DNA of 64,000 nt from an uncultured Thermodesulfobacteriota bacterium (GTDB taxonomy: Bacteria; Desulfobacterota; Anaeroferrophillalia; Anaeroferrophillales; Anaeroferrophillaceae): assembly GCA_964478545.1 (NCBI GenBank), contig CAYZIS010000009.1, positions 2,070-66,069 of the forward strand, written 5' to 3'. Position numbers and translations under genes: made by a program. The notes under the pieces were generated by a model. It had not been told where the DNA came from. It searched no databases and saw nothing but the letters and a program-made list of their open reading frames with translations. Shown piece by piece: positions 12,742 through 51,967 of this stretch (position 1 is the first letter of the stretch; each line of letters opens with the position of its first letter).

Positions 12742-12763
12742 AAGTTCTCATTTTTCAATCTTG

Positions 12764-12803
12764 AACCAGAAAAGCACCTGAACTCCGGGTGCTTTTCTGG
12801 TTA
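12764..12803 (+). terminator. Rho-independent terminator-like hairpin after the cytochrome gene
   Basis: CCAGAAAAGCACC-(9-nt loop)-GGTGCTTTTCTGG is a perfect 13-bp stem. It is flanked by an 18-nt direct repeat AGTTCTCATTTTTCAATC at 12742 and 12818. Confidence 0.5.
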
Positions 12804-12969
12804 TTGTCCTTCCATAAAGTTCTCATTTTTCAATCAATTCTTTTCCCTGCAGAAAAACTTTCTTAACCTTGACAAAAATAACTTTATACTATCTTAACAA
12901 AGATGTTTCATAACGGATGATCTCATCGGCTAATCCCCGGCAAATGGCTGGGATCTCATCATATGAAGG

Positions 12970-13128
12970 AAAAGGCCATGAAAAAAGAACTGATCATCGT
13001 TGTTGAGGATGAAGCTGATATCCGTGAGGTACTGGAATACAATCTGGAACGGGAAGGCTACAAAGTCCTGACGGTAGCGGACGGCCTATTTTCACCTCGG
13101 CTTCCCCCTGTGTCAGGATAGATGTCGG
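12970..13128 (+). pseudogene. 5' fragment of an OmpR/PhoB-type response regulator gene (the receiver domain is truncated after about 40 codons)
   Basis: MKEKAMKKELIIVVEDEADIREVLEYNLEREGYKVLTVADG, then divergence and a stop. Confidence 0.5.
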
Positions 13129-13200
13129 CCCCACCACTCGTATTTTCACCAACCCCACGCACCAGTTGACGGAAGACTACATCACCGGACGCTTCGGTTG
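13105..13200 (+). pseudogene. 3' fragment of phosphate ABC transporter ATPase pstB (last about 24 codons)
   Basis: The frame reads GPTTRIFTNPTHQLTEDYITGRFG*, which is the canonical PstB C-terminus. No upstream ABC domain is present. Confidence 0.5.
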
Positions 13201-13629
13201 ATCCCCTATTTGCTCGGGCATAGTTTTTCAGAGAATCTCAAAGCTTGAGATCTCGAGGGAAACATGTTTTATCACCGAAAATATCTACCGTGATTGGCAG
13301 GTTTCCTTCATCACACCGGAAAATGCCATGAACCGTCCGGATAGAAACTGGGATCTAATCCATGGAAAACTGACTTTCTGTGCTTCGCTGTCCTGCTTCG
13401 CTTGAAAGCCGGCCTCTGCCATCCATGATTTCGGTGTTCAGTTCGGGAAATCAGATCCGGCCGGTTTGGCAGTATGATTACGATCTCGGCCGTAACTGGC
13501 AACGAGTGGTCTCTGAACCATATCATAAAAAATGCAGTAACGATATTCTTGCAAAATATACTTGACAAATATCTTATTACTTTGTATCTTATGTAGGAAC
13601 AGCATTACAGCATATTATAAGGTGAGCTG

Positions 13630-14223
13630 ATGAAGATAAAAATAAAAAAACTGGCGATGGTGCAGATGGGATATTCATTCCGATCCCGTCTTGAAGCCTC
13701 CAGTAGCGGTGGCGTCGCGGTTATCCAGATGAAAGACCTTCTTGATGACAACACGGTTGGCTGTGGTGACTTGGTAAAAATTGATATGGAGATGGTCAAA
13801 GAACATCACCTTGTGCAGAAGGGAGATTTGGTTTTCAGGTCGCGTGGACACGTAACTACGGCAGCGGTTCTTCTTGAGGAACCGGGGAAGGCGGTTGTTG
13901 CCGCTCCTCTATTAAGGATAAGGATTACCAAGCCGGACAGGGTTTTGCCCGAGTATCTGAACTGGTACATCAGCCAACGGGATGCGCAGATTTTCCTGAC
14001 CAGCAGAGCCAAAGGCACGGTCCAGAAGATGATCAGCAAACAGGCGATTGAGGAGCTTGAAGTTTCATTGCCAAGTTTGGAAAAACAGAAAAATATCGTT
14101 GAGCTGGCATCGCTTATCGCGAGAGAACAAAACCTGCTTCAGCAGATTTCCGAAAAGCGGGAGAAATACATCTCAACAGTACTCATGCAGTTTGCCAAAG
14201 GAACCACGAATGCACACCAATAA
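13630..14223 (+). CDS. hsdS: Type I RM specificity subunit, half-size HsdS (single target-recognition domain plus a conserved coiled region)
   Basis: LPSLEKQKNIVELASLIAREQNLLQQI is the HsdS conserved repeat. Length 197 aa. A -35/-10-like promoter (TTGACA at about 13562) lies upstream. Confidence 0.7.
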   Translation: MKIKIKKLAMVQMGYSFRSRLEASSSGGVAVIQMKDLLDDNTVGCGDLVKIDMEMVKEHHLVQKGDLVFRSRGHVTTAAVLLEEPGKAVVAAPLLRIRITKPDRVLPEYLNWYISQRDAQIFLTSRAKGTVQKMISKQAIEELEVSLPSLEKQKNIVELASLIAREQNLLQQISEKREKYISTVLMQFAKGTTNAHQ

Positions 14224-14592
14224 ACACGAATTATTACTGAAGGATGAAGTATACCAAGTCGTGGGTTGCACTATGGAGGTTTTGAATACGCTCGGTCACG
14301 GGCTACTGGAAAAGCCGTATGAAAATGCATTGGTGGTCGAGTTTGGGTAAGGGGAATCTCTTTCCAGCAGCAGAAACGATTTCCAGTGGTTTATAAATCA
14401 GTTCAGGTCGGGGAATATATTCCAGATTTGATCGCTTTTGATCAAATGGTGATTGACACCAAAGTCATCGAATCTATTGGCAATAATGAAAGAGCCCAAA
14501 TCATCAACTATCTCAAAATAACCGGTCTACGGGTCGGGCTCATCCTCAATTTTAAGCATGCAAAATTAGAGTGGGAACGTATCGTCCTATGA
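14210..14592 (+). pseudogene. GxxExxY protein (PD-(D/E)XK nuclease, PDDEXK_3 family) split by a 1-nt frameshift in a G-run near 14344-14349
   Basis: The N-terminal part reads EVYQVVGCTMEVLNTLGHGLLEKPYENALVVEF. It continues in another frame as VRGISFQQQKRFPVVYKSVQVGEYIPDLIAFD...AQIINYLKITGLRVGLILNF, matching the family end-to-end. Confidence 0.6.
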
Positions 14593-14648
14593 AGATTATT
14601 CGTGTAAATTCGTGTCCATTAGTGGTTTCAAAATAAGGAGAATAAAAC

Positions 14649-16277
14649 ATGAACAGCAAGATTGACCAGAGAGACATCAACAACGCGGCCTGGGCGGCGT
14701 GTGACACCTTCCGAGGGGTTGTTGATCCGGCCCAGTACAAAGACTACATCCTGGTGATGCTGTTTTTGAAATACATCTCCGATGTCTGGCAGGACCATTA
14801 CGATGAATATCAAAAGCAGCATGGCGATGATGATGTTCGTATCCGCCGCAAACTCGAGCGTGAACGCTTTGTTCTCCCAATAGTGAAACTGACGGAAAAA
14901 AATGATCAGACCGGTGAAGAAACGGTGCTAGATGAGTTCCCCGCCAACTACTACAGCCTTTACGAACGCAGATCAGCCGCCAATATCGGTGAGCTGATCA
15001 ACATCGTTCTCGACCATATTGAAGAAAACAACAAGACCAAACTTGAAGGGGTTTTCCGCAATATCGACTTTAACAGCGAGGCCAATCTTGGCAAGACCAA
15101 AGACCGTAACCGCCGCCTGAAACAGCTGCTGGAAGATTTCCATAAACCACAACTCAACATGAAGCCCAGCCTCGTCTCCGAGGATGTGATCGGCAACACT
15201 TATATCTATCTGATCGAACGTTTTGCTTCCGACTCCGGAAAGAAGGCCGGGGAGTTCTTTACCCCGCTGAAGGTTACCGAACTGGTCGCCAAGCTGGCCG
15301 GCCCTAAACCGGGCGACCGTATCTGCGACCCGGCCTGCGGCTCCGGCGGTCTGTTGATTCAGGCAGCCAAACAGGTGGGCGACCTGTCTGCGGGCAACAC
15401 ACAGGCAGGCCGTAACTTTGCCCTCTTCGGCCAAGAATCAAACGGCAGCACCTGGGCGCTCTGCCGCATGAATATGTTCCTCCACAGTTTTGACAGCGCC
15501 CGGATTGAGTGGTGCGATACGCTGAACAGCCCGCTCTTGGTTGAAAATGATCGCCTGATGAAATTCAACTGCGTGGTGGCCAATCCGCCATTTTCGCTGG
15601 ACAAATGGGGCGCTGAGAATGCTGAGAGCGATCAATACAACCGCTTCTGGCGCGGCGTTCCGCCAAAAAGCAAAGGCGACTGGGCCTTTATCAGTCACAT
15701 GGTGGAAATTGCACTGGAAAAAGAGGGTCGTGTGGTCGTGGTGGTTCCCCACGGGGTGCTGTTCCGAGGCGCTGCCGAGGGACGTATCCGGGAAAAGATG
15801 ATTGAAGAAAACCTGCTTGATGCGGTGATCGGCCTGCCGGGCAACCTGTTTCCGACCACCAATATTCCGGTGGCGATTCTGGTCTTTGACCGCTCAAGGG
15901 AAAAAGGCGGTGCCCGCGAAGCGTGCAAGAATGTTCTCTTTATTGATGCCAGTCGGGAGTTTGTCTCCGGTAAAAACCGGAATACCCTTTCTGAAGAACA
16001 TCTGGCCAAGATCATGGAAATCTACACGGCCAGAACCGAAGTGGAAAAATACGCCCATGTGGCTGACGTTGTAGAGATCAAGGAAAACGACTTCAACCTC
16101 AACATCCCCCGCTATGTGGACACCTTTGAAGAGGAAGAGGAAATCGACATCGATGCGGTTCAGCTGGAAATTGAGGCGCTGGAAAAAGAGCTGGCAGAAG
16201 TGCGGGTGAAAATGGCCGAAAAAATGCAGCAAATCCAGAGAAACCACGAATGCACACAAATAGACACGAATGTTTAG
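14649..16277 (+). CDS. hsdM: Type I RM DNA methyltransferase subunit (N6-adenine)
   Basis: VANPPF catalytic motif, a DPACGSGG AdoMet motif, an HsdM N-terminal domain, and 542 aa. The last 11 codons are supplied by repeat element R. Confidence 0.9.
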   Translation: MNSKIDQRDINNAAWAACDTFRGVVDPAQYKDYILVMLFLKYISDVWQDHYDEYQKQHGDDDVRIRRKLERERFVLPIVKLTEKNDQTGEETVLDEFPANYYSLYERRSAANIGELINIVLDHIEENNKTKLEGVFRNIDFNSEANLGKTKDRNRRLKQLLEDFHKPQLNMKPSLVSEDVIGNTYIYLIERFASDSGKKAGEFFTPLKVTELVAKLAGPKPGDRICDPACGSGGLLIQAAKQVGDLSAGNTQAGRNFALFGQESNGSTWALCRMNMFLHSFDSARIEWCDTLNSPLLVENDRLMKFNCVVANPPFSLDKWGAENAESDQYNRFWRGVPPKSKGDWAFISHMVEIALEKEGRVVVVVPHGVLFRGAAEGRIREKMIEENLLDAVIGLPGNLFPTTNIPVAILVFDRSREKGGAREACKNVLFIDASREFVSGKNRNTLSEEHLAKIMEIYTARTEVEKYAHVADVVEIKENDFNLNIPRYVDTFEEEEEIDIDAVQLEIEALEKELAEVRVKMAEKMQQIQRNHECTQIDTNV

Positions 16278-16305
16278 AACCACGGAAAGCTCAAGGAGAT
16301 TCAGC

Positions 16306-16900
16306 GATGAATAAAGACAAAGGCAAACTTTCCCTTCAAGATGAATTAGCCGAATTTCTGCTGTACACCACTCCAGATGGAGGAGTGAAGGTGGAGGTTT
16401 TCCTTTACGGCGAGACCGTCTGGCTACCGCAGAAACGTATTGCAGAGCTCTTTGGGGTTGGTGTGCCTGCCATTTCCAAGCACTTGGATAATATTTACGC
16501 AAGCGGTGAACTGGAAAAACCAGCAACTGTTTCCATTTTGGAAACAGTTCAGCTGGAAGGGAAACGTCAAGTGGCGCGATCTGACACCACTATCGGGAAA
16601 AACTATCTGTCAGAAACGGAAATCAAACAGTTGGAACGTACTGTATCCGCATTCTTTGACTACATTGAAAACATCGTTGAACGCCGCAATAGCTTTACCA
16701 TGAAAAGCTTTACAGCGAGCGTGAATAAGTTTTTGGAGTTCAATGAATATAAAATTCTGGAAGGTCACGGCTCTATTTCCCGCATGCAGGCGGAAGAGAA
16801 GGCTTTCGGCGAATACGAAAGGTTCAACAAGACACAGCTTATAGATTCTGATTTTGACAGGATGGTGAAGGAGTTGTCTACGGAGGGGAACCACGAATGA
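16306..16900 (+). CDS. RhuM-family N-terminal-domain paralogue (short). The track ORF starts at 16250, inside the repeat.
   Basis: YTTPDGGVKVEVFLYGETVWLPQKRIAELFGVGVPAISKHLDNIYASGEL parallels the RhuM N-terminus of the 21515 gene. The conserved leader AAGGAGATTCAGCGATG precedes it. Confidence 0.5.
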
Positions 16901-17039
16901 GCATGAATAGACACGAATAATTAGAACCACGGACGACACGGAAAAACACTGAATTGAAAGCGTTTGATTTTCCGTGCCTTCCGTGCCTTCCGTGCTTTCC
17001 GTGGTTAAAGATGGCCGATAAGCTCAAGGAGATTCAGCG

Positions 17040-17933
17040 ATGATAAATATTGATATTGAAAAACATCACCATCAGACATTTGAGAAAATCAAGCAGACGG
17101 CACAGAATGGTTCTGAGTTCTGGATGGCGCGCCGACTAGCCAAGCTCCTCGACTACGCTGAGTTTCGCAATTTTCTGCCGGTCATCGAAAAGGCGAAAAA
17201 AGCCTGTGAAAATAGTGGTCAGTCCGTGAAAAACCATTTCGTGGAAATGCACGAGATGGTTTCAATTGGTTCCGGAGCTGAGCGAAAAATGAAATCCTAC
17301 GGGCTCTCCCGTTATGCCTGTTACTTGATTGTACAAAATGGCGACCCATCCAAGCCGGTCATCGCCAACGGTCAGACCTATTTCGCCATGCAGACCCGAA
17401 GGCAGGAATTAGCCGATGACCAGGCTTTTCAGCGCCTCAAGGAGGATGAAAAGCGCCTTTTTCTGCGCAACGAAATGCGGGAGCACAACAAACAGCTGGT
17501 GGAAGCTGCTCAACAGGCTGGTGTTGAATCCAATCTCGACTTTGCCATATTCCAGAACCATGGCTACAAAGGACTGTACGGTGGGCTGGACGCCAAGGGG
17601 ATTCATAAACATAAAGGATTGAAAAAGAGCCAACAAATTCTCGACAACATGGGTAGCACCGAACTTGCCGCCAACCTTTTTCGCGCTACGCAAACCGAAG
17701 AAAAACTGCGCCGGGAAAATATTCAGGGCAAGACCAAGGCTAACAAAACCCATTTTGAAGTCGGTAAAAAAGTCCGCCAAACCATCGAAGAACTTGGTGG
17801 AACCATGCCGGAAAATCTCCCGACACCGGACGAAGACCTAAAGAAACTGAAAAGACGGGTGAAGTCGGCAGGGAAAAAGCTGATCAAAGGGTGTGAACTG
17901 CCGGAAAGAGGAACCACGAATGCACACGAATAG
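17040..17933 (+). CDS. dinD: DNA-damage-inducible protein D (DinD) family protein
   Basis: The N-terminus HHQTFEKIKQTAQNGSEFWMARRLAKLLDYAEFRNFLPVIEKAKKACENSG closely matches the DinD family. Such genes are frequently embedded in Type I RM loci. Confidence 0.6.
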   Translation: MINIDIEKHHHQTFEKIKQTAQNGSEFWMARRLAKLLDYAEFRNFLPVIEKAKKACENSGQSVKNHFVEMHEMVSIGSGAERKMKSYGLSRYACYLIVQNGDPSKPVIANGQTYFAMQTRRQELADDQAFQRLKEDEKRLFLRNEMREHNKQLVEAAQQAGVESNLDFAIFQNHGYKGLYGGLDAKGIHKHKGLKKSQQILDNMGSTELAANLFRATQTEEKLRRENIQGKTKANKTHFEVGKKVRQTIEELGGTMPENLPTPDEDLKKLKRRVKSAGKKLIKGCELPERGTTNAHE

Positions 17934-18053
17934 ACACGAATGCTTAGAACCACGGACGACACGGAAAAACACGGAATTGAGAACGTTTAATCTTCCGTGC
18001 CTTCCGTGCTTTCCGTGGTTAAAAATAGCCGAGAAACTCAATGAGATTCAGCG

Positions 18054-19250
18054 ATGAACAAAAAAGATGCTCTCCCAAAAGGATGGAAAAACATAAAGCT
18101 TAAAAAGCTTGTTACTCAGGAAATCAAGAATGGCTATTCACCCAACTGTCCTGAAGAACCAAACGGGAGTTGGATTCTGGGCTTAGGAAATTTAACCGAA
18201 AACGGGTTTGATCCATCCCAGGCAAAACCAGCTCCCAAAGGTGATAGCAGAGTAAAAGACTTTTTACTTGAACCTGGTGATTTTTTAATTAGTCGATCTA
18301 ACACGTTAGACAAGGTTGGAAGGACAATGTTGTTCAGAGGTGAAATTGAAAACTGCTCTTATCCAGATTTACTCATGAGATTTCGTGTAGATGAAACTTA
18401 GGTTACAAATGAATTTTTGGAGGGGTATTTAAGGAGCTCAGTAGTCAGGAAATACATCCAAGGCTGCGCCTCTGGTACAAGCAACAGCATGGTGAAGATC
18501 AATAAAACAATTGTCGAAAAAATACCTATTGTTTTGCCTCCCCATCCAGAGCAAAAAGCCATTGCCGATTTGCTGTCCACCTGGGATGAGGCCATCGAGA
18601 AAACCGAACGGCTGATTCTGGCGCAGGAGAAGCGGTTTAAACAACTGCTGCGGGAGTTGTTAAGAGAAAAAGTCGAGCTGGGGAAAATTGAATTAGGGAA
18701 GGTTTGTAAGATAACAAAAGGAAAACAGTTAAATATAGCTCATATGAATCGTGATGGTTATTATTATGCCTTAAATGGCGGGATTAAACCATCTGGAAGA
18801 ACTGATGATTGGAACACCAAAGCAGGAACCATAACTATCAGTGAAGGTGGAAACTCATGCGGATATGTAAACTTCAATACACAAAGATTCTGGTCTGGTG
18901 GGCATTGTTATTCACTTCTTAATCTAAAAAAATCTGTAGACTCACACTACCTGTTCTTTTATCTAAAAATGAACGAGCCCAAACTTATGAACTTACGGGT
19001 TGGATCTGGACTCCCCAACATACAAAAGAAAGACGTTGATCGGTTTAAAATATCGATCCCACCGCTCGCAGAACAGCATCAAATAGCCGAGACATTATCC
19101 GCCGCCCAACAGGAAATCAACCTGCTGAAACAGCTTGCAGAAAGATACAAAACCCAGAAACGCGGTCTGAGGCAGAAGATGCTCACGGGCGAATGGCGGG
19201 TAAAACCTGAAATCATTACCCAATATGCGGAAGAGGTGCCATGCAAATAA
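18054..19250 (+). pseudogene. hsdS: Type I RM specificity subunit (two TRDs) interrupted by an in-frame TAG at 18399-18401. Both halves are in the same frame.
   Basis: TRD1 (18054-18398), then TAG, then VTNEF-LEGYLRS..., central conserved region, TRD2, and the C-terminal conserved ISIPPLAEQHQIAETLSAAQQEINLLKQLAERYK. Confidence 0.65.
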
Positions 19251-19840
19251 AGCTTACCTATTACAAACCGCAGACGTTGATCCCGGTTATCGGTCTGCTC
19301 TGGGCTCTTTCATCGTGGGCGCTTTCTAAGCTTTGGGGTTACGGCTTCCTACAAGGCACCGGGCCAACCGCCATCGTGATATTTTTTCTAACAGTCTATG
19401 ACAAGTGGCTGTGGAAATACCCTTTGTTTAACTTAATGAACACAATCCCAAACTTGAACGGCATGTATGAAGGAAAAATATCCTTTCACTGGAACGGACA
19501 GGCTGAATCAAAAGACTGTGAACTAGAAATCAAGCAAACCTGTTCAAACATAAAGGTAAAAACGATTTTCACGAAAGAAGGCGAAAACGATACACAGTCC
19601 GTCAGCACCGAAGCATTCATAAAAACTGACGAGGTTAGCGACCAGCATCTCTATTTTTATTATCGCAGTCGTGGTTCCGGGATGGATGGTGACACTCTTG
19701 ATCAGCACGAGGGTATGAATGTTTTGGAGATTCTGAAGAACAACGGATTGATCCAGCTTGATGGATACTATTTTACCAACCGTAATCCTCAAACAAAAGG
19801 CTGCATGAAAGCTACGAAAACAAACAAAGGAGCTAAATAA
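19241..19840 (+). CDS. Small membrane protein with two N-terminal TM helices and a beta-rich C-terminal domain (Cap15-like or 2TM-type CBASS effector candidate)
   Basis: TM1 is LIPVIGLLWALSSWALSKLW and TM2 is GPTAIVIFFLTVYDKWLWKY, followed by about 130 aa of beta-type sequence. The start overlaps the hsdS stop, and the stop overlaps the next start (TAATG). Confidence 0.4.
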   Translation: MQIKLTYYKPQTLIPVIGLLWALSSWALSKLWGYGFLQGTGPTAIVIFFLTVYDKWLWKYPLFNLMNTIPNLNGMYEGKISFHWNGQAESKDCELEIKQTCSNIKVKTIFTKEGENDTQSVSTEAFIKTDEVSDQHLYFYYRSRGSGMDGDTLDQHEGMNVLEILKNNGLIQLDGYYFTNRNPQTKGCMKATKTNKGAK

Positions 19841-20823
19841 TGGATACACATAAACTGTTCTCTGATTTCGATGCTGTAATTCGACTAAACACCTCAAAAA
19901 TAAGTAAATTAAAAAGCAACCGCACAGCACTCCGCAATAAAATTAAAGATCACTTCAAAAAGAACAACTGGACCGCACCAAAATTCTACTCTCAGGGTTC
20001 CTTCCCTTTGAACACAAACCTAAATCCGATCAAAAAAACTACAAGTGATGGAGATGTTAAAGAAGAGTATGACTTGGATGATGGCGTGTATTTCATCTGC
20101 CCAAAATCAGAGCGCAAAGAGCCAGCGACTTATCATGATCGCATCAAGAAGGCTGTGGATGATCATGCCGAAAGCGTCATAGACAAAACAACCTGTGTTA
20201 GGGTTGTATACATAGATGGACATCACATTGATCTGCCGTCTTATTGGCTTGAAAAGGACGGTAACACACCACAACTTACTCACAAGTCTAAAGGTTTTAC
20301 TGATAGCGACCCGAAAGCTTTTAATGAATGGGTTGATGACAATATTTCCAGAGCCAGTAACAATGGTCAACTCCGCAGAATCATCCGCTACTTAAAGGCA
20401 TGGAAGAATTATCGTGAAAATAGCAACAGTACTCTGGAGCTACCGTCAGGTTTCATTTTAACGATTTTGGCATGCAATCATTTTTCAAAGAACAGCCGTG
20501 ATGATCTATCCTTCAAAGGAACAGTTGAATCTATCAAAAATTCACTAAATTTAAGCTTCACCTGTTATCGTCCAACCGTCCCCACCCATGAGGAGCTTTT
20601 GTTTGATTATTCAAAAGATACAGTAATAAAAGAGCTAACCAGCCTGATCGACAACGCACAGAAAGCGATTGATTCGGATTGTGAGAAAAAAGCGTCTGAA
20701 TTCTGGCACAAAGTGTTTGGGGATCGTTTCCCGTCGGGTAAAGAGAAGGATGAGAAGCCCAAGCAATCTACAGCATCCAACACAACCAGAACAAAGGTCA
20801 GTGCTCCATGGGCATCGTTCTAA
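19840..20823 (+). CDS. cGAS/DncV-like nucleotidyltransferase (CD-NTase, SMODS-domain) candidate
   Basis: Pol-beta NTase signature QGSF...SDGDV...YDLDDG, a later VRVVYIDGHHIDLP (third acidic strand), and a C-terminal helical region RRIIRYLKAWKNY typical of CD-NTases. Length 327 aa. Confidence 0.5.
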   Translation: MDTHKLFSDFDAVIRLNTSKISKLKSNRTALRNKIKDHFKKNNWTAPKFYSQGSFPLNTNLNPIKKTTSDGDVKEEYDLDDGVYFICPKSERKEPATYHDRIKKAVDDHAESVIDKTTCVRVVYIDGHHIDLPSYWLEKDGNTPQLTHKSKGFTDSDPKAFNEWVDDNISRASNNGQLRRIIRYLKAWKNYRENSNSTLELPSGFILTILACNHFSKNSRDDLSFKGTVESIKNSLNLSFTCYRPTVPTHEELLFDYSKDTVIKELTSLIDNAQKAIDSDCEKKASEFWHKVFGDRFPSGKEKDEKPKQSTASNTTRTKVSAPWASF

Positions 20824-21440
20824 CAGAACAAGATAAACAAGAGTTGGCTCAAGATTACCCTGCGCTTAACTGTAGTTTGCCGCGAGGGGTAATCTGGGGA
20901 ACCTTGGAGTTGGCTTGTTCATTCGATGAGTCCGCAAATGAAGTTGTTCATGAAGACTCATTTGATAATTACATCCGCGACTGTTATGAGATACGCGTCG
21001 ATTTCAATCAGGCAGACACTTTTGGTTTTCCCAAAGTGTTCGAGGAGTCGGGAATCATTAGAAATTTTGCGGACAGCAATGGTATCAAGCCAGAAGATTT
21101 GCATGTAAACAAAGATGATGCTGACAGCTGCTGTTTGGGGATCTTCCCTGAATATCATTGGACAGGTGCCGCTTCATTCATACGAGATAAGGTAGTGCCG
21201 TTTTTTTACTGGCAGTCTTATCGACGCTTCTATGAGAAAAAACCATGGAAAGGCTATACACATGGCAACCGTGGCATTGTGGAGGCGATGAGTATGCCTC
21301 TCAATGAATCCTCAAAAGGTCACTCACGTAATAAACGATGCCCATGCGGAAGCGGCCAAAAATACAAAAAATGTTGCATGTCTCGAGATGCGATTCTGCG
21401 AAATAAACTATCCAAATCTATTACATCTCGAAAGAGTTGA
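20808..21440 (+). CDS. UBC/E2-like fold protein with a C-terminal SEC-C metal-binding motif (candidate Cap2-like E2-only accessory)
   Basis: Pattern LAQDYPALNCSLPRGVIWGTLEL...YEIRVDF...FPKVF...LHVNKDDADSCCLGIFPEYHW resembles the UBC fold (an HPN-like HVN plus a catalytic Cys). It ends CPCGSGQKYKKCC. The 5' end overlaps the NTase gene by 16 nt. Confidence 0.35.
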   Translation: MGIVLTEQDKQELAQDYPALNCSLPRGVIWGTLELACSFDESANEVVHEDSFDNYIRDCYEIRVDFNQADTFGFPKVFEESGIIRNFADSNGIKPEDLHVNKDDADSCCLGIFPEYHWTGAASFIRDKVVPFFYWQSYRRFYEKKPWKGYTHGNRGIVEAMSMPLNESSKGHSRNKRCPCGSGQKYKKCCMSRDAILRNKLSKSITSRKS

Positions 21441-21442
21441 TA

Positions 21443-21505
21443 ATGACCAATTTCCAAATAAACGAAAAGCATCTTTCTCAAATCCCTGCGATTTTGAGTT
21501 ATTAG
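21443..21505 (+). pseudogene. Duplicated 5' end of hsdR (20 codons, MTNFQINEKHLSQIPAILSY*) left upstream of the inserted rhuM
   Basis: AAATAAACGAAAAGCATCTTTCTCAA is repeated at 21454-21480 and at 22558-22587 (the true hsdR start MHNFQINEKHLSQLPAV). Confidence 0.5.
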
Positions 21506-21514
21506 GGGTGAGTT

Positions 21515-22555
21515 ATGAATAATGATGGCTTGAAAAACAACTCTGAGCTCATGATCTACCAAACCCCTGATGGGAGTATCAAAATAGATGTCCGCCTTGA
21601 GGATGAAAGCGTCTGGCTGACACAGGCGCATATGGCGAAGCTGTTTCAGGTGAAACCGCAGAATATCACCATGCACCTGAAAAACATCTATGCCGAGGGT
21701 GAACTATCCGAAAAGGCAACTTGTCAGGAATTCTTACAAGTTCAAACCGAGGGTTCCCGTCAGGTTGAACGAAAACGGAAGCTTTACAATCTCGACGCAA
21801 TTATTTCCGTGGGTTACCGTATCCAGTCTCAAGTGGCGACCCACTTCCGCATCTGGGCGACGCAACGACTGAAAGAGTACATTGTCAAAGGCTTTGCGTT
21901 AAACGATGACAGATTCAAAAGTGGTCAATCAATGAACTATTTCACGGAACTGCAGGAACGCATCCGCGAAATTCGGCTCTCCGAGCGGTTTTTTTATCAG
22001 AAGATCAAGGACATCTACACCACCAGCATTGACTATGACCCCAGGGATGAAAAGACGATTGAGTTCTTCAAGATCGTTCAAAACAAGTTGCTTTGGGCGA
22101 TCAGCGAACAGACGGCGGCGGAGCTAATCTATCGTCGCGCGGATGCGGCATTGCCCCTAATGGGAATGCAGTCGTTCGATAAGAAAGGCGTGCCGGTCCG
22201 GAAAGGCGATGTTAACATCGCCAAAAACTATCTTCAGGAAGATGAAATAAAACTGCTGGGGTTACTGGTGGAACAGTATCTTGCCTTTGCCGAAACCATG
22301 GCACAACAGCACACAACGATGTATATGAAGGACTGGATTGGGCGGCTTGATGCCATCATTCAACTGAACGGACGGGAACTGCTCACTCACGCCGGAAAGA
22401 TCAGCCATCAACTGGCGTTGGAGAAATCGGCCCGGGAGTATGAAAAATACCAAGAAACACAAAAGCAACTTCAGCACAAAGAGAGTCTGCGGGAACTGGA
22501 GCAGGATCTAAAGCGGCTCAAAAAACCTGGGCAGGCTGGAGACGGCAATGCATAA
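21515..22555 (+). CDS. rhuM: Virulence protein RhuM family (Fic/DOC-related) protein
   Basis: 346 aa. LMIYQTPDGSIKIDVRLEDESVWLTQAHMAKLFQV...ISVGYRIQSQVATHFRIWATQRLKEYIVKGFALNDDRFK is the RhuM family signature. Confidence 0.8.
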   Translation: MNNDGLKNNSELMIYQTPDGSIKIDVRLEDESVWLTQAHMAKLFQVKPQNITMHLKNIYAEGELSEKATCQEFLQVQTEGSRQVERKRKLYNLDAIISVGYRIQSQVATHFRIWATQRLKEYIVKGFALNDDRFKSGQSMNYFTELQERIREIRLSERFFYQKIKDIYTTSIDYDPRDEKTIEFFKIVQNKLLWAISEQTAAELIYRRADAALPLMGMQSFDKKGVPVRKGDVNIAKNYLQEDEIKLLGLLVEQYLAFAETMAQQHTTMYMKDWIGRLDAIIQLNGRELLTHAGKISHQLALEKSAREYEKYQETQKQLQHKESLRELEQDLKRLKKPGQAGDGNA

Positions 22556-25500
22556 CTTTCAGATAAACGAAAAGCATCTTTCTCAACTTCCGGCGGTGCA
22601 ACTGCTGATATCACTGAGCTATGAATATATTTCTCCGGTTGAAGCGCTCCGTGAACGACAGGGAAGAGTTGCCAATGTCTTGCTGGAAAACATTCTCCGC
22701 AATCAGCTCAAAGAAATCAACCGCATTCGCTACAAAGGAAATGAATATCTGTTTAGCGAGGAAAATGTTCAGTCCGCCATCCAGAAGCTGAAAAACATTA
22801 AATATGACGGTTTGCTGAAAACCAATGAAGCAATTTATGATCTGATCACCCTGGGAACGGCCATGGAGCAGACCATCGAGGGTGATTCTAAAAGTTATAA
22901 TTTGAACTATGTTGACTGGCACAATCCCGGCCGCAACAGATTTCACGTGACGGTTGAATACAGTGTTGAGCGGTCCCGGAGCACCGAGACCACCCGGCCG
23001 GATATTGTCCTCTTTGTTAACGGCATTCCTTTTTGCGTGATTGAATGCAAAGCCCCACAGATTGAAGTTGAACAGGCAGTCTCCCAATCCATTAGAAATC
23101 AGAACGACGACTATATTCCGAAGTTATTCATCTATACCCAGTTGGTTCTGGCATTCAATAAGAACAGCGCGATGTTCGCAACCACCGGAACTGCAGCAAA
23201 GTTCTGGTCCATCTGGAAGGAACCACGAATGGACACAAATAAACACGAATACAATAAATTGAAGAAACTGGTAGATGAGTCTGTTCGTGTTGAAATTGAA
23301 CCCAAATCCTTTGAGATTCACTCAGAGCAAAATATTAGTGAAGATTCGTGTTCATTCGTGGTTTCGAAAGAGCGTTTGGTGACGGAGCAAGACAAAGCCC
23401 TTTTTGCTCTCTGCCGCCCGGAACGCCTGCTGGAACTGGCTTGGAAGTTCATTGTTTTTGATGGCGGCATTAAAAAGATTGCCCGCTATCAACAGTATTT
23501 TGTCATCAAGTCCACTCTGAACCGGATCAAGCATTTTGACCGTAACGGTTCCCGCAAGGGCGGTGTTATCTGGCACACGCAGGGGTCAGGGAAATCCCTG
23601 ACCATGGTGATGCTGGCCCGGAATCTGGCCTTGGATCCGGAGATATTGAATCCTCGCATTGTTCTGGTCACCGACCGGGATGATTTGGACAAGCAGCTGG
23701 GTAATACTTTTGCCGCCTGCGGACTGGAAGCCAATCGGGCAACATCGGGAAGAAATCTGCTGGAGTTGGTAGCTGAAAAAAACTCCGGCATTATCACCAC
23801 GCTCATTCATAAATTCGACAAGGCTTACGCGGTAAGAAAATACCAGGATAAATCCCCCGACATTTTCATTCTTGTGGATGAAAGCCACCGTACCCAGTTC
23901 GGCTCGTTTTCCGCCCGTATGCGCCAGATGTTTCCCCATGCCTGCTATCTGGGATTTACAGGTACTCCGTTGCTGAAAAAAGAGAAAAACAACTTCACCA
24001 GGTTCGGAGAACTAGTGGAGCCGCATTACTCCATTTCACAGGCGGTAGAAGACGGCGCGGTCGTTCCACTCTTGTATGAAGGACGGCATGTGGAGATGAC
24101 CCAGAACAAGGCTGCTGTGGACCTCTGGTTCGAGCGTCATACCCAAGGCTTGAGCAAAGAACAGCAGGCGGACCTGAAACGTAAATATGCTCGGGCGGAA
24201 ATGCTGAACAAGGCTTATCAGGTCATTTACATGAGGGCCTTTGATATCAGTGAACACTTTCGGGCTAATTGGCAGGACACCGGGTTCAAGGCACAACTGG
24301 TCGCGCCAAATAAGGCTTCGGCGCTTAAATACCATGCGTATTTGAATGACATCGGCATGGTCAGTTCGGAAGTTGTTATTTCCCCTCCGGATATGCGTGA
24401 AGGCTATGAAAAGACGGACGATGAAACGACTGATGACGTGGTAAGGTTCTGGCAGAAAATGGTGAAACGCTATGGCAGCAAGGAGGAGTATACCAAGCAG
24501 CTCATCAACCAGTTTAAACACGGGAGCGATCCCGAAATCCTTATTGTCGTCGATAAGCTCTTAACCGGCTTTGACGCGCCAAGAAACGCGGTACTTTATT
24601 TATGCAGGGTTCTCAGGGAACATTCGTTGCTTCAGGCTATCGCGCGGGTTAACCGGATCCATGAAGGCAAGGAGTTCGGTTTTATCGTCGATTATGCAAA
24701 TGTTCTTGGTGAGCTGGATAAAGCGCTGACCATGTATAGCGCGTTTGAGGGTTTCGACGAATCGGATCTTGTCGGTACTCTTACTTCCATCAACAGCGAA
24801 ATTGAAAAACTGCCGGGGCGCTATTCGGATTTATGGGATTTCTTTAAGTCGGTAAAGCATTCTTATGATGAAGAGGCATACGAGGTTTTGCTTGCTGATG
24901 ATGAATTAAGGGAAGAGTTTTATAGTCGTCTTTCTGAATTTGGTAAAAACCTCGGTATCGCTCTTTCTTCTGAAAAGTTTTTGTCTGAGACAGATGAAAA
25001 AACTCTGTCCAGATACAAGGCTGATCTCCGGAAATTCCAATCGCTTAAGGCATCTGTCAAGTTGCGCTATGCTGAAGCTATTGATTACCGGGATTATGAG
25101 CCGAAAATCAAGAAGCTGCTGGATACCCATATTCAAGCCAATGAGGTTATCCAGCTCAACGAGCCGGTTAACATCTTCGATGACAAAATGTTCAATCAGG
25201 TAAAAGAGGAGCAAGGAGTTTATCAAACCAGGAAAACCACGGCCTCCAAAGCCGATATGATTGCTCACGCAACGAAAAAAGTGATTACGGAAAAAATGTT
25301 CGAAGACCCTGCTTTTTACGAAAAATTTTCAAAGCTGATCCAGCGGGCTATTGAAGATTTCAGAGCAAAAAGAATATCGGATCTGGATTATCTCAATAAA
25401 GTCGTTGAGGTCAGGAATAAAGTCGTCGGCAAGGTTCATGATGATGTTCCTGATAAACTTTCCGGCAATGAAGATGCCATGGCCTATTATGGGATACTGA

Positions 25501-25769
25501 AACCGTTCCTCGAAAATAACAAATTGAATGAAGAAGACCTTGAAGCTGCCACCGCAGATACGGCCATCGCTCTAAACGGTATTTTGGAAAAACACAAAAA
25601 AGTTCATTTCTGGGATGATGAGGATGCCCAGAAGCAAACGGTTAATGAGATTGACGATTACCTCTATGATGAACTTAAAACAGAAAGAGGTATCGAACTG
25701 TCGCTGGATCAGATGGATGACATCATTGAAAAGGTTCTGCAGGTGGCGAAACACCGGAGTTACAAATGA
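22548..25769 (+). CDS. hsdR: Type I RM restriction subunit HsdR (SF2 helicase/nuclease). It contains a 147-bp in-frame palindromic insertion at 23219-23365.
   Basis: QGSGKSLTMV (Walker A), VDESHR (DEAH box), and an N-terminal PD-(D/E)XK region (DIVLFVNGIPFCVIECK). Length 1073 aa. Confidence 0.9.
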   Translation: MHNFQINEKHLSQLPAVQLLISLSYEYISPVEALRERQGRVANVLLENILRNQLKEINRIRYKGNEYLFSEENVQSAIQKLKNIKYDGLLKTNEAIYDLITLGTAMEQTIEGDSKSYNLNYVDWHNPGRNRFHVTVEYSVERSRSTETTRPDIVLFVNGIPFCVIECKAPQIEVEQAVSQSIRNQNDDYIPKLFIYTQLVLAFNKNSAMFATTGTAAKFWSIWKEPRMDTNKHEYNKLKKLVDESVRVEIEPKSFEIHSEQNISEDSCSFVVSKERLVTEQDKALFALCRPERLLELAWKFIVFDGGIKKIARYQQYFVIKSTLNRIKHFDRNGSRKGGVIWHTQGSGKSLTMVMLARNLALDPEILNPRIVLVTDRDDLDKQLGNTFAACGLEANRATSGRNLLELVAEKNSGIITTLIHKFDKAYAVRKYQDKSPDIFILVDESHRTQFGSFSARMRQMFPHACYLGFTGTPLLKKEKNNFTRFGELVEPHYSISQAVEDGAVVPLLYEGRHVEMTQNKAAVDLWFERHTQGLSKEQQADLKRKYARAEMLNKAYQVIYMRAFDISEHFRANWQDTGFKAQLVAPNKASALKYHAYLNDIGMVSSEVVISPPDMREGYEKTDDETTDDVVRFWQKMVKRYGSKEEYTKQLINQFKHGSDPEILIVVDKLLTGFDAPRNAVLYLCRVLREHSLLQAIARVNRIHEGKEFGFIVDYANVLGELDKALTMYSAFEGFDESDLVGTLTSINSEIEKLPGRYSDLWDFFKSVKHSYDEEAYEVLLADDELREEFYSRLSEFGKNLGIALSSEKFLSETDEKTLSRYKADLRKFQSLKASVKLRYAEAIDYRDYEPKIKKLLDTHIQANEVIQLNEPVNIFDDKMFNQVKEEQGVYQTRKTTASKADMIAHATKKVITEKMFEDPAFYEKFSKLIQRAIEDFRAKRISDLDYLNKVVEVRNKVVGKVHDDVPDKLSGNEDAMAYYGILKPFLENNKLNEEDLEAATADTAIALNGILEKHKKVHFWDDEDAQKQTVNEIDDYLYDELKTERGIELSLDQMDDIIEKVLQVAKHRSYK

Positions 25770-26494
25770 TGGAGGCTGCAATTCATAACGATAAACGCTC
25801 GCTTGTTTATGGGCGCAAGACCATTGATTACAGTCTTTTCTATTGCGATAGAAAAACGATGGAAATTGCGGTTCATCCTGACAGTACCGTCATTGTCAAA
25901 GCACCGATCGACTCCGATATTTCGTTGATCGAGAAAAAGTTAAATAAAAGAGGACGATGGATTTTCAGACAGTTGAACTACTTCAGGCAGTTTAATCCCA
26001 AAACACCTGATCGATGCTATGTGAATGGTGAAACCCACCTGTATCTTGGAAAGCAATATCGCTTAAAACTGACGGAGGGCTCAGAAAATTCAGTAAAGCT
26101 GGTCCGGGGCTTTTTTTATATTACCTGCCGTGATGTACCAAGCCCGGCAACAGCCAAAAAGCTTTTGCACAAGTGGTATTTGGAAAAGGCGGCCAGGCAA
26201 TTCAAAGAAAGCATGGATCGCTGCTGGCAAAAATTCTCCAACTTCGATTTTAGCAAACCCAATTTATCGATCAAACGAATGCAAAAAAGATGGGGCAGCC
26301 TTTCAGAAAAAGGAACGGTGACACTCAATACCGATCTGATCAGAGCACCCAAGGAATGTATTGAGTACGTTGTAACCCACGAACTGTGCCATTTGAAATA
26401 TCGTAATCACAGCCCCGAATTTTATAAGCTGCTCGATTCTGTTATCCCCGGCTGGGAAAAGATAAAACACAGACTTGAACTCAGTATGATGTGA
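25766..26494 (+). CDS. M48/YgjP-like zinc metallopeptidase (DUF45), commonly co-encoded with hsdR
   Basis: HELCHLKYRNH is an HExxH motif. Length 242 aa. The start overlaps the hsdR stop. Confidence 0.6.
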   Translation: MMEAAIHNDKRSLVYGRKTIDYSLFYCDRKTMEIAVHPDSTVIVKAPIDSDISLIEKKLNKRGRWIFRQLNYFRQFNPKTPDRCYVNGETHLYLGKQYRLKLTEGSENSVKLVRGFFYITCRDVPSPATAKKLLHKWYLEKAARQFKESMDRCWQKFSNFDFSKPNLSIKRMQKRWGSLSEKGTVTLNTDLIRAPKECIEYVVTHELCHLKYRNHSPEFYKLLDSVIPGWEKIKHRLELSMM

Positions 26495-26597
26495 ATATGA
26501 ACAGAATTATTTTAATAAAGACTAATGTGGTTTAATTTTAACGGACACTTTTCTGCTATGAGTCATTAAACAGCAAAACCAGTAAGCGAGGTGTCCA

Positions 26598-26727
26598 ATG
26601 ATTGAAAAATAAAAGCGGCCAAAATACACGAAAGAATTCAAGCAAGATGCCATTAAACTGGTCGTAGAGCAGAGCAGTACAGCTTCCTGGGAAATATGTT
26701 CCGCAAGTACAGTTACCTATTATGACC
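26598..26727 (+). mobile_element. IS3-family transposase orfA 5' remnant (degenerate, with an in-frame stop)
   Basis: The frame reads MIEK*KRPKYTKEFKQDAIKLVVEQSSTAS, matching the IS3 OrfA HTH N-terminus. No remainder of the IS follows. Confidence 0.5.
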
Positions 26728-28012
26728 GACAGGTTTCCTTCATCACAAAGGTACAAAGCAGGCAGATGAGAGAAGAAACAGCGAGGATCAGCAACAGTTT
26801 GGAATAGGCCTCCAGCGCATAGCCACCGGCTGCGGTTTTAGGATAGGCATCCAGCACTTTTCCCAGCAGCGGCATAAAGACGGCACCGCCCAAAAAGGGG
26901 AAAAGGTTCACCGTCCCCACGGACGTGCCGGTAATGGCAGCCGGAAAAAGCTCCTTGGTGGTAGTAAAACCGATAACCACCACTGCCGATGAGCAGAAGG
27001 AAAAAAGGAAAAATATCACGTAGAGTGCTACTCGGGGCAGACCAACCGGATAGATGAAGAGAATGAAGAATTCAACCGTTAAAACGGCCATGCAGGCCAT
27101 CAATACCTTTTTACGACTGTGGATGATCCGCTCTGAAAGAAAGCCCAACAGGGGGCTGCCAAAAATCATTCCCCAGGCAATCATGCTGAGAATAGCTCCG
27201 GACTCTGAGCGATTTAGGCCATAGACATCCATCAGGTAAGGACCGCTCCACAAAGCACCAAAACCGAAAAAAATACCACAGTCAAAGAAAAACCAGATAG
27301 CTACCGGCCAGAAATATTTCTCTGTCACCACCTGTCTGGCACCTTCCCACAAACCTATTTCTGCCGTTACCGGGGCCGTTCCCTCTCCCCGCTGATCAAT
27401 TTCTGCCAGAGATGGCCAGCCACGATCAGCAGGACGATCACGGACAATCAGCCAAACCAGAAGGACAAGGAAAAAGGTTAATATCCCGATCAATTCAAAG
27501 GAAATCCGCCAACCCAGATGACCGGTCATCAAGGCCAGAAACCAGGTGGCCGCCATCACCCCGATGCCGCCAACAGCATTGAGAATCCCGGCCATAATTG
27601 CAAATTCCCGGGTTCGAAACCACTGGGAAAGAATTTTCATGGTGGGGATGAAAACCATGGATACCCCAAAGCCCACCATAACCCGACCGATAAAAGCTAT
27701 TTTGATCGTTGGGGCAAAGCCGAACAGGAGGCTGCCGACTGCCGCCAACAGCAGAAAAGAAGTAACGGTCTTGCGTGGTCCCAGGGAGTCGGAAAGTAAG
27801 CCTGCGGGAAACTGCATGACCGCATAGCAATAAAAATAAATTGACCCTAACAGGCCCATAACCCCAGCACTGGCGTGAAAATCCTGTATTAAGTCATTGG
27901 CGACCACGGATAGGGAAAGACGGTGGAAATAGACAAAAAAATAAGCCAATGCCAGAACCAGGAAAATAAACCAGCGAAAGCTAAGAACCTTTTTCCCCGG
28001 TGATAGAGCCAT
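26720..28012 (-). CDS. MFS transporter (12 TM)
   Basis: 430 aa. Typical MFS motifs (GxLaDrxGrR-like FIGRVMVGFG) and 12 predicted helices. Confidence 0.8.
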   Translation of the reverse strand: MALSPGKKVLSFRWFIFLVLALAYFFVYFHRLSLSVVANDLIQDFHASAGVMGLLGSIYFYCYAVMQFPAGLLSDSLGPRKTVTSFLLLAAVGSLLFGFAPTIKIAFIGRVMVGFGVSMVFIPTMKILSQWFRTREFAIMAGILNAVGGIGVMAATWFLALMTGHLGWRISFELIGILTFFLVLLVWLIVRDRPADRGWPSLAEIDQRGEGTAPVTAEIGLWEGARQVVTEKYFWPVAIWFFFDCGIFFGFGALWSGPYLMDVYGLNRSESGAILSMIAWGMIFGSPLLGFLSERIIHSRKKVLMACMAVLTVEFFILFIYPVGLPRVALYVIFFLFSFCSSAVVVIGFTTTKELFPAAITGTSVGTVNLFPFLGGAVFMPLLGKVLDAYPKTAAGGYALEAYSKLLLILAVSSLICLLCTFVMKETCRS

Positions 28013-28026: not shown

Positions 28027-28428
28027 TTACCCAGACATTACTTTGACGTAATATGTCCTTTTACGTGGACCATCAAACTCAGCGAAATAAACATCCTGCC
28101 AGGTTCCCAACACCAACCGACCGTCCTGAACCAGCAGGGTTTCAGCAAAACTAAGCAGGCTGGCCTTCAAGTGAGCATCTGAATTTCCTTCCAAGTGATG
28201 ATAATCACCTCGTTGGGGAATCAAGCTGGCAAGTTTGGTCAGGATATCCCGTTTGACGCTGGGATCAGCATTCTCATTGATGGTTACTGCGGCAGTGGTA
28301 TGGGGCACAAATACCACACAAAGACCATCATTAATTCCTGATTCCTTCAGGTCAGCCGAAATAGTCCCAGTTATATCTAGCAATTCATTTCGCGATTGCG
28401 TCTGGATTTCATGGTGATATAAAGGCAT
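28027..28428 (-). CDS. yjbQ: YjbQ/UPF0047 family protein (secondary thiamine-phosphate synthase-like)
   Basis: TGTISADL...GLCVVFVPHTTAAVTINENADPSV...HLKASLLS family motifs. Length 133 aa. Confidence 0.7.
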   Translation of the reverse strand: MPLYHHEIQTQSRNELLDITGTISADLKESGINDGLCVVFVPHTTAAVTINENADPSVKRDILTKLASLIPQRGDYHHLEGNSDAHLKASLLSFAETLLVQDGRLVLGTWQDVYFAEFDGPRKRTYYVKVMSG

Positions 28429-32046: not shown

Positions 32047-32287
32047 GGAATATTAAAAAAATATTTAAGGCTGTTCAGTAACTATTTCCAAACTGTCTCG
32101 ATTGGGGTCAGTGCTTGATTACCGGCGGCAAGAAATCACCTTGAAACATCGGAATCCAGACCCACCGGTTGTCAAGCTTTGACCCCGTTGGAGAGAGCGA
32201 AGCAACGTTCGACAGTTTTCACGGTAAATTAGCTGCCAAAACAGCTACCTGAATGGTTACGAATATTTAAAATGTGACCCTCAATAC

Positions 32288-34809: not shown

Positions 34810-34873
34810 ATCTTATCCTCTCCACCTTGCTATTTTTGCAGCAACAGCAATCATTTTGATTTCACCAAATCCT

Positions 34874-35302: not shown

Positions 35303-35366
35303 AATCTATATTCCATACCAAAGATGACGGGGACAGGATACACCCTGTCCCCATTATAATCACTGT

Positions 35367-51951: not shown

Positions 51952-51967
51952 CTGACGCGGACTGAAT

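Follow-up and report, generated by a model that had tools for sequence, protein, structure and literature searches.

How does a block of foreign defence genes come to lie exactly at the 3′ end of a transporter gene, between two identical short repeats, when it carries no recognisable enzyme with which to have put itself there? The question is raised by a 64,000-nucleotide stretch of DNA from an uncultured Thermodesulfobacteriota bacterium (contig CAYZIS010000009.1, positions 2,070 to 66,069; this whole stretch, numbered from its first letter, is called the window here), in which some 13.4 kb with a Type I restriction-modification (R-M) locus and further defence genes stand at the end of a gene for an MFS transporter. 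An earlier inspection of the letters, the sequence-only reading, saw there the classic attL/attR signature of an island integrated site-specifically or with the help of an insertion sequence (IS). That a foreign island was inserted at the 3′ end of the MFS gene is borne out, both by empty sites in relatives and by deviating composition: 13316-26729 is a horizontally acquired, now immobile defence island between convergent MFS and pstB genes. The direct repeats at its two boundaries do match the single copy in the empty site, but the classic signature is only partly supported. A perfect flanking repeat at a gene 3′ end is by itself no proof of integrase-mediated integration. Here the identical stretch is what two diverged copies have conserved at their core, there is no recombinase, and the junctions appear to vary between hosts, the left one in the window cutting into a GGACT-like gene. 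The locus is of interest as a clean, comparatively verified gain of a defence island at the end of a housekeeping gene in uncultured relatives of sulfate reducers.

Is the block an insertion at all? The relatives that bear on this are uncultured Desulfobacterales-type metagenome contigs sharing the flavodoxin/MFS synteny, and six of them have an empty site. Three (L083, L176 and L175) belong to one species, with an MFS gene 87% identical in nucleotides to that of the window (in L083 and L176, 92% in amino acids); the others (L003, L084 and L177) are of a more distant species, with about 76% nucleotide identity in MFS. In all six MFS and pstB are convergent, with a spacer of about 90 bp and one copy of the site. 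The empty site aligns to the left junction of the window (pstB end, spacer, 18-bp repeat) up to 13315 and to the right junction from the repeat into MFS, as the sequence-only reading had predicted of genomes lacking the island, and the direct repeats at both boundaries coincide with the single empty-site copy. Because both junctions align in this way, the 13,414 bp at 13316-26729 have been added to the ancestral arrangement by insertion. Nor is the junction an assembly artefact, since the right one recurs in independent assemblies. Two other look-ups added one comparison: an exact-protein search with the MFS sequence returned the same strain only and no empty site, and a scan of GTDB genomes gave one syntenic relative, L003, the other 79 loci having unrelated neighbours.

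Composition points the same way. The GC content of the island is 45.4%, against 48.2-50.1% in all native 13.4-kb windows, and its tetranucleotide distance to the rest of the window, 0.225, is 3-fold larger than that of native DNA (0.067-0.084); the sequence-only reading had proposed a test for a GC deviation between 13.3 and 26.7 kb, and the deviation is there. Absence from the locus in close relatives, taken together with atypical composition, marks the island as horizontally acquired.

The repeat itself, CAGGTTTCCTTCATCACA, occurs exactly twice in the window, both times on the plus strand. Its right copy, at 26730-26747, was correctly placed by the sequence-only reading, as was its coding role, for on the minus strand it encodes the end of the MFS protein (...FVMKETCRS*). 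The left copy is at 13298-13315, not at 13299-13316 as first given, one base off. Among all exact repeats of at least 15 nt in the window it is the sole direct repeat of at least 18 nt outside obvious repeat families, and two matches to it arose in 0 of 100 dinucleotide-preserving shuffles. The remaining orphan exact repeats are 15-17-mers and one partly palindromic inverted 18-mer, and because these also occur, the 18-bp repeat by itself (naive expectation about 0.03) is indicative and not decisive. Such orphans are what could be said for a repeat arisen by chance in a region that is ancestral and was never inserted. The empty sites in the six related contigs, with breakpoints at or beside the repeat, refute that idea, and the foreign composition and the shuffles also speak against it, so that it is scarcely credible. 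Among 181 fetched loci the 18-mer was confined to contigs of the same strain, apart from one viral contig, and is thus not the common genome-wide motif that the sequence-only reading had named as a possible refutation of its claim. The viral match was considered as an attP-like copy and rejected as chance, its flanks being unrelated.

What then is the 18-mer? When the 41 nt to the left of its two copies are compared, there are 22 matches, 15 transitions and 4 transversions (54% identity, 46% diverged). Only 8 of 64,000 offsets in the window match this flank so well (p ~1e-4), and beyond 41 nt the similarity is random. The direct repeat therefore extends over about 59 nt, of which 40/59 are identical, the 15 transitions and 4 transversions amounting to a strong transition bias. 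What has been duplicated, imperfectly and over roughly 59 bp, is the last MFS codons with the spacer downstream of them, and the 18-mer is the coding core of this unit, in which no base differs. Because the similarity runs on in diverged form for about 41 nt, and with that transition bias, the two copies are diverged homologues and not a fresh target duplication. The stretch encoding FVMKET is in any event conserved among relatives, with 15-16/18 nt shared in the sister species. The left copy is about 90% identical to the native spacer of the sister species. The right copy is far more diverged and moves with the island, the first 44 nt of 26677-26729 being 98% identical in the occupied sister-species contig L126. 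With the left copy native-like and the right one diverged yet kept with the island, the island carries a foreign homologous copy of the MFS end and its spacer, the latter being GGGAAATATGTTCCGCAAGTACAGTTACCTAT. A foreign tract within the MFS gene itself was also sought, in the form of an abrupt change in divergence from one part of the gene to the next; the flat profile obtained was uninformative.

Could a transposase have made the duplication, whether that of an IS3-family element at the right end or another? An IS3-type remnant does lie near the right boundary. The sequence-only reading described it as an orfA remnant abutting the right copy; it is real, with an HTH_Tnp_1 match (E=8e-4) and an internal stop codon, but it does not abut, a non-coding stretch of 53 nt separating it from the right 18-mer. 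An identical remnant with an identical truncation is present in L126 and L182, the two occupied contigs of the sister species, and the truncation is accordingly old, being common to both species. IS3-family target duplications are 3-5 bp long. This single, internally truncated relic has no partner at the left end, and the repeat search of the window found no terminal inverted repeats at the island ends, which is not what insertion of an IS or transposon leaves. Further, the diverged similarity beyond the 18 bp is not expected of a fresh duplication. Origin of the repeat as a transposase target-site duplication is very improbable, and it and chance are both essentially excluded.

The left boundary is informative in another way. 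The first base after the left 18-mer is codon ~96 of a GGACT-like gene, which is intact, directly upstream of a half-size HsdS gene, in contig L173, and is cut at other points in L163 and L178. With the gene whole in one relative and cut elsewhere in two others, the left joint looks illegitimate and unlike the arm of an attachment site. Comparison with L173 was the sole means of identifying this DNA; relaxed Pfam scans of the small open reading frames (ORFs) at both island ends gave no match. Outside the island, the left 18-mer lies, as the sequence-only reading had it, beside gene fragments: it is 97 nt downstream of a pstB relic (13076-13201), itself fused to a phoB-like fragment (12963-13075). 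In L175 the pst region is intact, with pstC, pstA, a PBP_like_2 gene and pstB in that order, and with the phoB-like fragment begins, on its left side, a deletion in the window lineage that amounts to 4 kb or more. This later event removed pstC, pstA, the PBP_like_2 gene, most of pstB and most of the response-regulator gene, and left the phoB′/pstB′ fusion. Just downstream of a multihaem cytochrome gene on the same side, an exact 19-bp direct repeat, AAGTTCTCATTTTTCAATC, at 12742-12835 flanks a 56-nt terminator-like hairpin (AACCAGAAAAGCACC...GGTGCTTTTCTGGTT), and could be a small duplication or an inserted hairpin element.

Coordinates of the features at the island and its junctions, with the evidence for each.
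Feature	Position	Strand	Evidence
phoB-like response-regulator 5′ fragment, 37 codons, fused to pstB relic	12963-13075	+	Response_reg E=7.5e-4, below gathering score
pstB 3′ relic, last ~41 codons, with indel, native flank	13076-13201	+	77% nucleotide identity to pstB 3′ ends of L003, L083, L084, L175, L177
native pstB-MFS intergenic spacer (left copy)	13202-13284	.	collinear with empty-site spacers; 33 nt nearest MFS ~90% identical to L083
extended imperfect repeat, left copy, 59 nt	13257-13315	+	comparison with 26689-26747
resident MFS 3′-end relic VMKETCQSR*, holding left 18-mer	13285-13315	-	in-frame reading; sister-species C-terminus CQSR* or CQS*
decayed 3′ half of GGACT-like (PF06094) gene, left end of inserted DNA	13316-13527	+	blastn and tblastn to intact gene in L173, 39-572
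conserved Type I R-M chassis with nested cargo	13528-26494	+	blastn to L164, L165-L172: starts 13528/13529, ends ~26488
intact half-size HsdS (single target-recognition domain)	13630-14223	+	Methylase_S; PADLOC Specificity_I
PDDEXK_3 (GxxExxY) pseudogene, frameshifted, ~46 codons in frame	14210-14600	+	Pfam profile positions 2-35 only; intact in L163, L164, L173, L174, L178
hsdM	14649-16277	+	N6_Mtase 8e-101, HsdM_N; PADLOC MTase_I
shortened RhuM (PDC-S05), internal deletion	16307-16900	+	Pfam RhuM profile 157-248 only; PADLOC, two separate stretches
~114-nt hairpin repeat of CACGAAT/TTCCGTG units	16884-16997	.	repeat families and inverted pairs; DNA fold z=-2.7
Bro-N / PDC-S13 gene	17040-17933	+	Bro-N 2e-9; PDC-S13 1e-125
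full-size hsdS, in-frame TAG at 18399-18401	18054-19250	+	PADLOC, sequence reading
CBASS: Cap15-type two-transmembrane (2TM) effector 19241-19840, CD-NTase 19840-20823, E2-like 20808-21440	19241-21440	+	Pfam Cap15_CD_rec, SMODS, DncV-like
hsdR 5′-end relic, ~78 nt, upstream of and overlapping rhuM start	21443-21520	+	repeat family, 82% over 49 nt; aligned with hsdR starts
full-length rhuM (PDC-S05)	21515-22555	+	Virulence_RhuM 2e-102; PADLOC 1e-138
hsdR, linker with in-frame solo inverted-repeat pair 23216-23365	22548-25769	+	HSDR_N, SWI2_SNF2, T1R_D3-like; translation
YgjP-like metallopeptidase, last chassis gene	25766-26494	+	YgjP-like 2.5e-55; follows hsdR in L164-L167, L182
IS3-family remnant: left end and first ~25 codons of orfA, stop codon, internally truncated	26497-26676	+	HTH_Tnp_1 E=8e-4, below gathering score; translation
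extended repeat, right copy: diverged MFS-downstream spacer 26689-26719, last MFS codons, 18-mer 26730-26747	26689-26747	+	comparison with left copy
MFS transporter gene, complete, ending ...FVMKETCRS*	26720-28012	-	MFS_1 2e-46; homologues

The sister species, B, is where the history of the site can be followed further. It includes the empty contig L083 and the occupied contigs L126 and L182, which are taken to be of one species because MFS of L126 is 99.4% identical to that of L083 and the MFS-flavodoxin region of L182 96.5%. At the same site L126 and L182 have hsdS, rhuM, hsdR, ygjP, the IS3 relic and then MFS. Occupied and empty alleles therefore coexist within species B. Are their breakpoints those of the window? 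On the right the switch from foreign to native sequence occurs at TACCTAT, 16 nt left of the 18-mer, in both L126 and L182, and in the window it occurs inside or at the 18-mer. On the left, what is probably the end of the species B island is in L163, from the same metagenome-assembled genome (MAG) as L182, where a small hairpin repeat and unrelated sequence come before the GGACT remnant and an MFS relic is missing; the 67 nt to the left of that remnant matched nothing in any of the sequences searched. The pstB contig of the species B MAG, L185, ends 30 nt past the stop codon. Read across these separate contigs of one MAG (L163, L185, L182), the left junction of species B apparently differs from that of the window, which is suggestive. 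The sequence-only reading had allowed that relatives with the same genes and no repeat-delimited breakpoint would tell against it, and this is found in part: in species B the right breakpoint is 16 nt away from the repeat and the presumed left end lacks the MFS relic.

Is the absence of a recombinase real, and if so does it matter? Pfam was run on the island ORFs and on most window ORFs of at least 110 aa, with precomputed annotations covering 32.3-40.1 kb, and in this set neither the island nor the window has an ORF for an integrase, excisionase, transposase or mobilisation protein. In 133 loci the first ORFs downstream of MFS are varied housekeeping genes, with an IS-type and REP-type transposase in three loci, and no recognisable integrase was seen among them on reading the N-termini by eye, with no HMM (hidden Markov model) scan. 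Lack of a recombinase would still be compatible with a site-specific integrative element whose integrase has been lost or is supplied in trans, the 18-mer then being the core of attL and attR and the island-borne MFS end a segment of attP that rebuilds its target gene. Much can be said for such an element: direct repeats stand exactly at the two boundaries that the empty site defines, the island supplies a new MFS stop codon two codons after the repeat, presence and absence at the same site occur within one species, related copies of the R-M chassis adjoin tmRNA genes, a classic integration hotspot, and an integrase gene near the right end could have gone with the internal deletion to which the truncated IS3 testifies. 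Set against this are not only the missing integrase, excisionase and mobilisation genes and the lack of any recognisable integrase at the other MFS loci, but the nature of the ends. The left ‘attP arm’ is a truncated housekeeping-type gene that is cut at other points elsewhere, the two host species do not share a right breakpoint, the presumed left end in the sister species lacks the MFS relic, and no attP-like copy of the 18-mer is present in viral contigs. On balance site-specific integration is considered unlikely here. The joint that a circle or attP would have under site-specific or Campbell-type mobility is ...TATGACCGA-CAGGTTTCCTTCATCACA-CCGGAAAATGCC.

Cis-mobilizable elements (CIMEs) keep attL and attR and are without integrase and transfer genes. 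The comparison with them, and with direct-repeat islands in general, is instructive (the term CIME is used in PMC5704250 and PMC6323972). Like them, the island is a foreign block at a conserved gene 3′ end with repeats at both boundaries and the target gene kept intact, is polymorphic in its presence among close relatives, and has no recombinase of its own. Unlike them, it is flanked by diverged homologues that share no more than 18 identical bp; a truncated gene forms one of its ends, a second host species appears to have other breakpoints, and no cognate integrase-bearing element is known for this site.

By what other route could native-like sequence be left on one side of the island and a foreign copy of the same sequence on the other? 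The insertion and its boundaries are matters of observation, as are its foreign composition, the lack of a recombinase and the extension of the repeat in diverged form, and from them we infer the route to which about even weight is given: homology-anchored or illegitimate recombination that used a donor-borne copy of the MFS end. The incoming DNA would have been a widely travelling Type I R-M chassis together with its GGACT-like neighbour gene and an IS3 relic, with a right end that already bore a diverged MFS 3′ end and spacer from a previous, related host. Recombination by the new host would have used this borrowed flank as a homologous anchor, and the other end would have been joined illegitimately, or else a circular form would have crossed over once in the short identical stretch. 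Either would leave on the left the native pstB relic, the native spacer and a 31-nt MFS relic, followed by the GGACT fragment, the chassis and the IS3 relic, with the foreign spacer leading into a complete MFS gene, and neither would need a recombinase encoded by the island. Truncation of IS3 and the decay of PDDEXK_3, one rhuM and the full-size hsdS would have come after insertion.

Homology-facilitated illegitimate recombination is known from natural transformation in Acinetobacter, Streptococcus pneumoniae and Pseudomonas stutzeri. The likeness to it would lie in the one homologous anchor (the incoming MFS end) and the one non-homologous joint, inside a gene, in the short piece of recipient DNA that is duplicated or lost there, and in the want of a dedicated recombinase; the difference is that here the event is read from its end product. 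In support of the favoured route, the pattern of relic duplications recurs inside the island, where there is an hsdR 5′ relic beside the insertion of CBASS (cyclic-oligonucleotide-based antiphage signalling system) and rhuM genes, and three copies of the hsdS ribosome-binding site (RBS) and start codon. If the borrowed-flank route is correct, defence islands based on R-M loci, and their nested cargo, could move between distant bacteria with no mobility genes of their own.

Several points weigh against that route. A crossover in a short attachment core would likewise leave an exact identity of 18 bp next to 9 nt holding 5 differences. More generally, illegitimate recombination with an anchor, one crossover of a circular form and site-specific integration all end in the same structure, and are not to be told apart by sequence alone. 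The identity of the window to species B is 84-87% in the island and 78-87% in core/host genes, and such near-equal divergence of island and host would also fit one ancient insertion followed by precise loss via the repeat. No lineage with the island-borne spacer, and hence no donor, was found among all fetched loci. A contiguous left junction of species B was not recovered by way of its half-HsdS, pstB or YgjP homologues, and binning or a later rearrangement, a miniature inverted-repeat transposable element (MITE) being present, could explain the difference in L163.

The near-equal divergence of island and host between the window's species, A, and species B can be accommodated otherwise. In an older relative, two illegitimate end joinings might have put the island into a target of about 60 bp that was staggered or had been duplicated. 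The locus would then have been passed between lineages by homologous recombination in its flanks, with one repeat copy replaced by a diverged allele and the 18-mer kept by its coding role. The clustering of three illegitimate-looking joints, phoB′/pstB′, MFS relic/GGACT′ and IS3′/spacer′, fits this, as does the conservation of the FVMKET codons noted above. It asks for more events than the favoured model, however, and the island-borne spacer is 98% conserved between the two species, where native spacers differ more; the spacer thus goes with the island and does not look like a flank that has been exchanged. Double end joining is for these reasons held to be quite improbable.

What does the island carry? 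It is an ordinary, decaying genomic island of familiar kind, in which CBASS, RhuM and Bro-N genes are set into a Type I R-M locus and there is nothing to surprise a specialist. By their families, hsdM, hsdS and hsdR in one locus are predicted to form a Type I R-M system, in which the full-size hsdS has an in-frame TAG and the half-size HsdS is intact, and the likely function of the whole is antiphage defence, by R-M and by the nested CBASS, RhuM and Bro-N genes. Several parts are decaying, namely PDDEXK_3, one rhuM and the full-size hsdS. The sequence-only reading had listed much the same genes and had called everything between the repeats defence-related. The gene content is as described, except that 13316-13527, the decayed GGACT-like gene, is not defence DNA, and some of the names have changed: the supposed dinD is a real gene of the Bro-N/PDC-S13 family, the supposed M48 peptidase is a YgjP-like metallopeptidase, and the full-size hsdS is present but with its stop codon. 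The supposed hsdS fragment at 13630-14223 is an intact half-size HsdS. That it might be a fragment was rejected on the lengths of its homologues, of which there are 1544 at E<=1e-20; the best 120 are 190-222 aa long (mostly 192-197), 79-100% identical, and from several phyla. Such half-size HsdS proteins of 192-197 aa, encoded upstream of hsdM, have 79-92% protein identity in listed Desulfobacterales, Pseudomonadales, Brocadiales, Bacteroidales, Myxococcota and other MAGs, a conservation that is unusually high for a target-recognition subunit; over the same phyla the complete R-M chassis keeps about 80% nucleotide identity.

The three CBASS genes gave PADLOC matches to Effector 2TM, Cyclase (2e-105) and E2 (8e-21), and the CD-NTase gene adjoins that for an effector with a predicted cyclic-nucleotide receptor domain, the arrangement by which a CBASS is recognised. 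A Cap15-type 2TM effector with a CD-NTase and an E2-only accessory is ‘type II short’ in the usual nomenclature. The likeness to CBASS with a Cap15-type effector thus extends to three adjacent genes, matching Cap15_CD_rec/Effector 2TM, SMODS/DncV-like Cyclase and E2. The difference is that this one is nested in a Type I R-M operon. The sister species has an island that is otherwise similar but lacks it, L182 running from hsdS directly to rhuM. Defence genes embedded in Type I R-M loci have already been described (Payne et al., bioRxiv 10.1101/2024.01.29.577857; the PADLOC PDC-S families). As in those loci, an hsdM-hsdS-hsdR operon has RhuM (PDC-S05), Bro-N (PDC-S13) and CBASS between its subunits, and cargo at the same slots varies among relatives (KilA-N, SLFN-ATPase, TIR/ThsB). 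Compared with them on the nesting of genes, the present island also has, beside each nested block, relics duplicated from the start of hsdS and from the hsdR 5′ end, and it has hairpins at cassette borders.

How widely has the chassis travelled? It is about 80% identical in nucleotides in Pseudomonadales MAGs (L165-L172), where it lies next to gcvP, and in L164 it lies next to a tmRNA gene; other contigs bearing it, from other phyla and at other loci, have it just downstream of tmRNA genes. The KilA-N, SLFN-type ATPase and TIR/ThsB genes mentioned are the cargo that such copies elsewhere have in the same slots. A plasmid collection yielded only generic hsdM at 65-69% identity. Within the window, the hsdR 5′ relic (21443-21520), diverged from the hsdR start at 22548-22625, lies between the CBASS E2 gene and rhuM, and the three copies of the hsdS RBS and start codon (AAGCTCAAGGAGATTCAGCGATGA), at 16287, 17020 and 18034, precede the short rhuM, bro-N and hsdS. 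Nested cargo seems, from such arrangements, to arrive with a piece of the next chassis gene. It is tempting to go further and to regard the chassis (half-size HsdS, PDDEXK_3, hsdM, hsdS, hsdR and ygjP), with its ~80% nucleotide identity from Desulfobacterales to Pseudomonadales, as a recombinase-free mobile defence platform that spreads, and swaps its nested cargo, with short gene ends carried over from earlier neighbours as recombination handles. This proposition is a doubtful one. If it were true, one mechanism would account for all three: the MFS 18-mer, the relic of the hsdR 5′ end and the hsdS starts that recur.

The CACGAAT/TTCCGTG hairpin repeat has a second copy at 17907-18020 and partial copies at 14197-14246, 16237-16286 and 23216-23365. 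A gene-less pair in frame in the hsdR linker is found both in the window (23216-23365) and in L164 (11858-12009), and further copies lie at the limits of the genes that are nested between hsdM and hsdS. At 5584-6018 of L164 these hairpins, as inverted repeats, bound the PDDEXK_3 gene, which there looks like a small mobile gene cassette.

Beyond the island, Rfam matched only tRNA-Sec in the window, and the repeat families are for this reason not known RNAs. One hairpin element of about 145-180 nt, in which GGATGTTCCGGCATGGCTC pairs with GAGCCAAGCCCGAACATCC, is at 38897-39040 and 51966-52143, with a partial copy at 50114-50167, and has no Rfam match. A further copy is at 1-29 of L163, flanking the left end of the island in the sister-species MAG. 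The element is MITE-like, since the copy at 38897-39040 is absent from the syntenic L177. Intergenic repeats of GCTAATAGCT-like units, both direct and inverted, are at 6806-6963, 47853-48210, 56640-56790 and 60723-60879, and a 49-bp exact repeat is at 46556 and 54278, again with no Rfam match for either. Between MFS and flavodoxin the window, L003 and L177 have a yjbQ (UPF0047) gene (28027-28428 in the window) that is missing in L083 and L182 of the sister species; a second UPF0047 gene is at 41404-41835. Two blocks, 32026-35909 and 36728-38743, with genes for a POR/TPP-enzyme, cytochrome P460 and thioredoxin-domain proteins, have no counterpart in the syntenic L177 (and L084), and may have been gained here or else lost from the relatives. 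Close to the beginning of the window, a tRNA-Sec gene at 925-1013 and a gene for a putative Se/S carrier protein at 2202-2759 are consistent with selenoprotein use in the organism.

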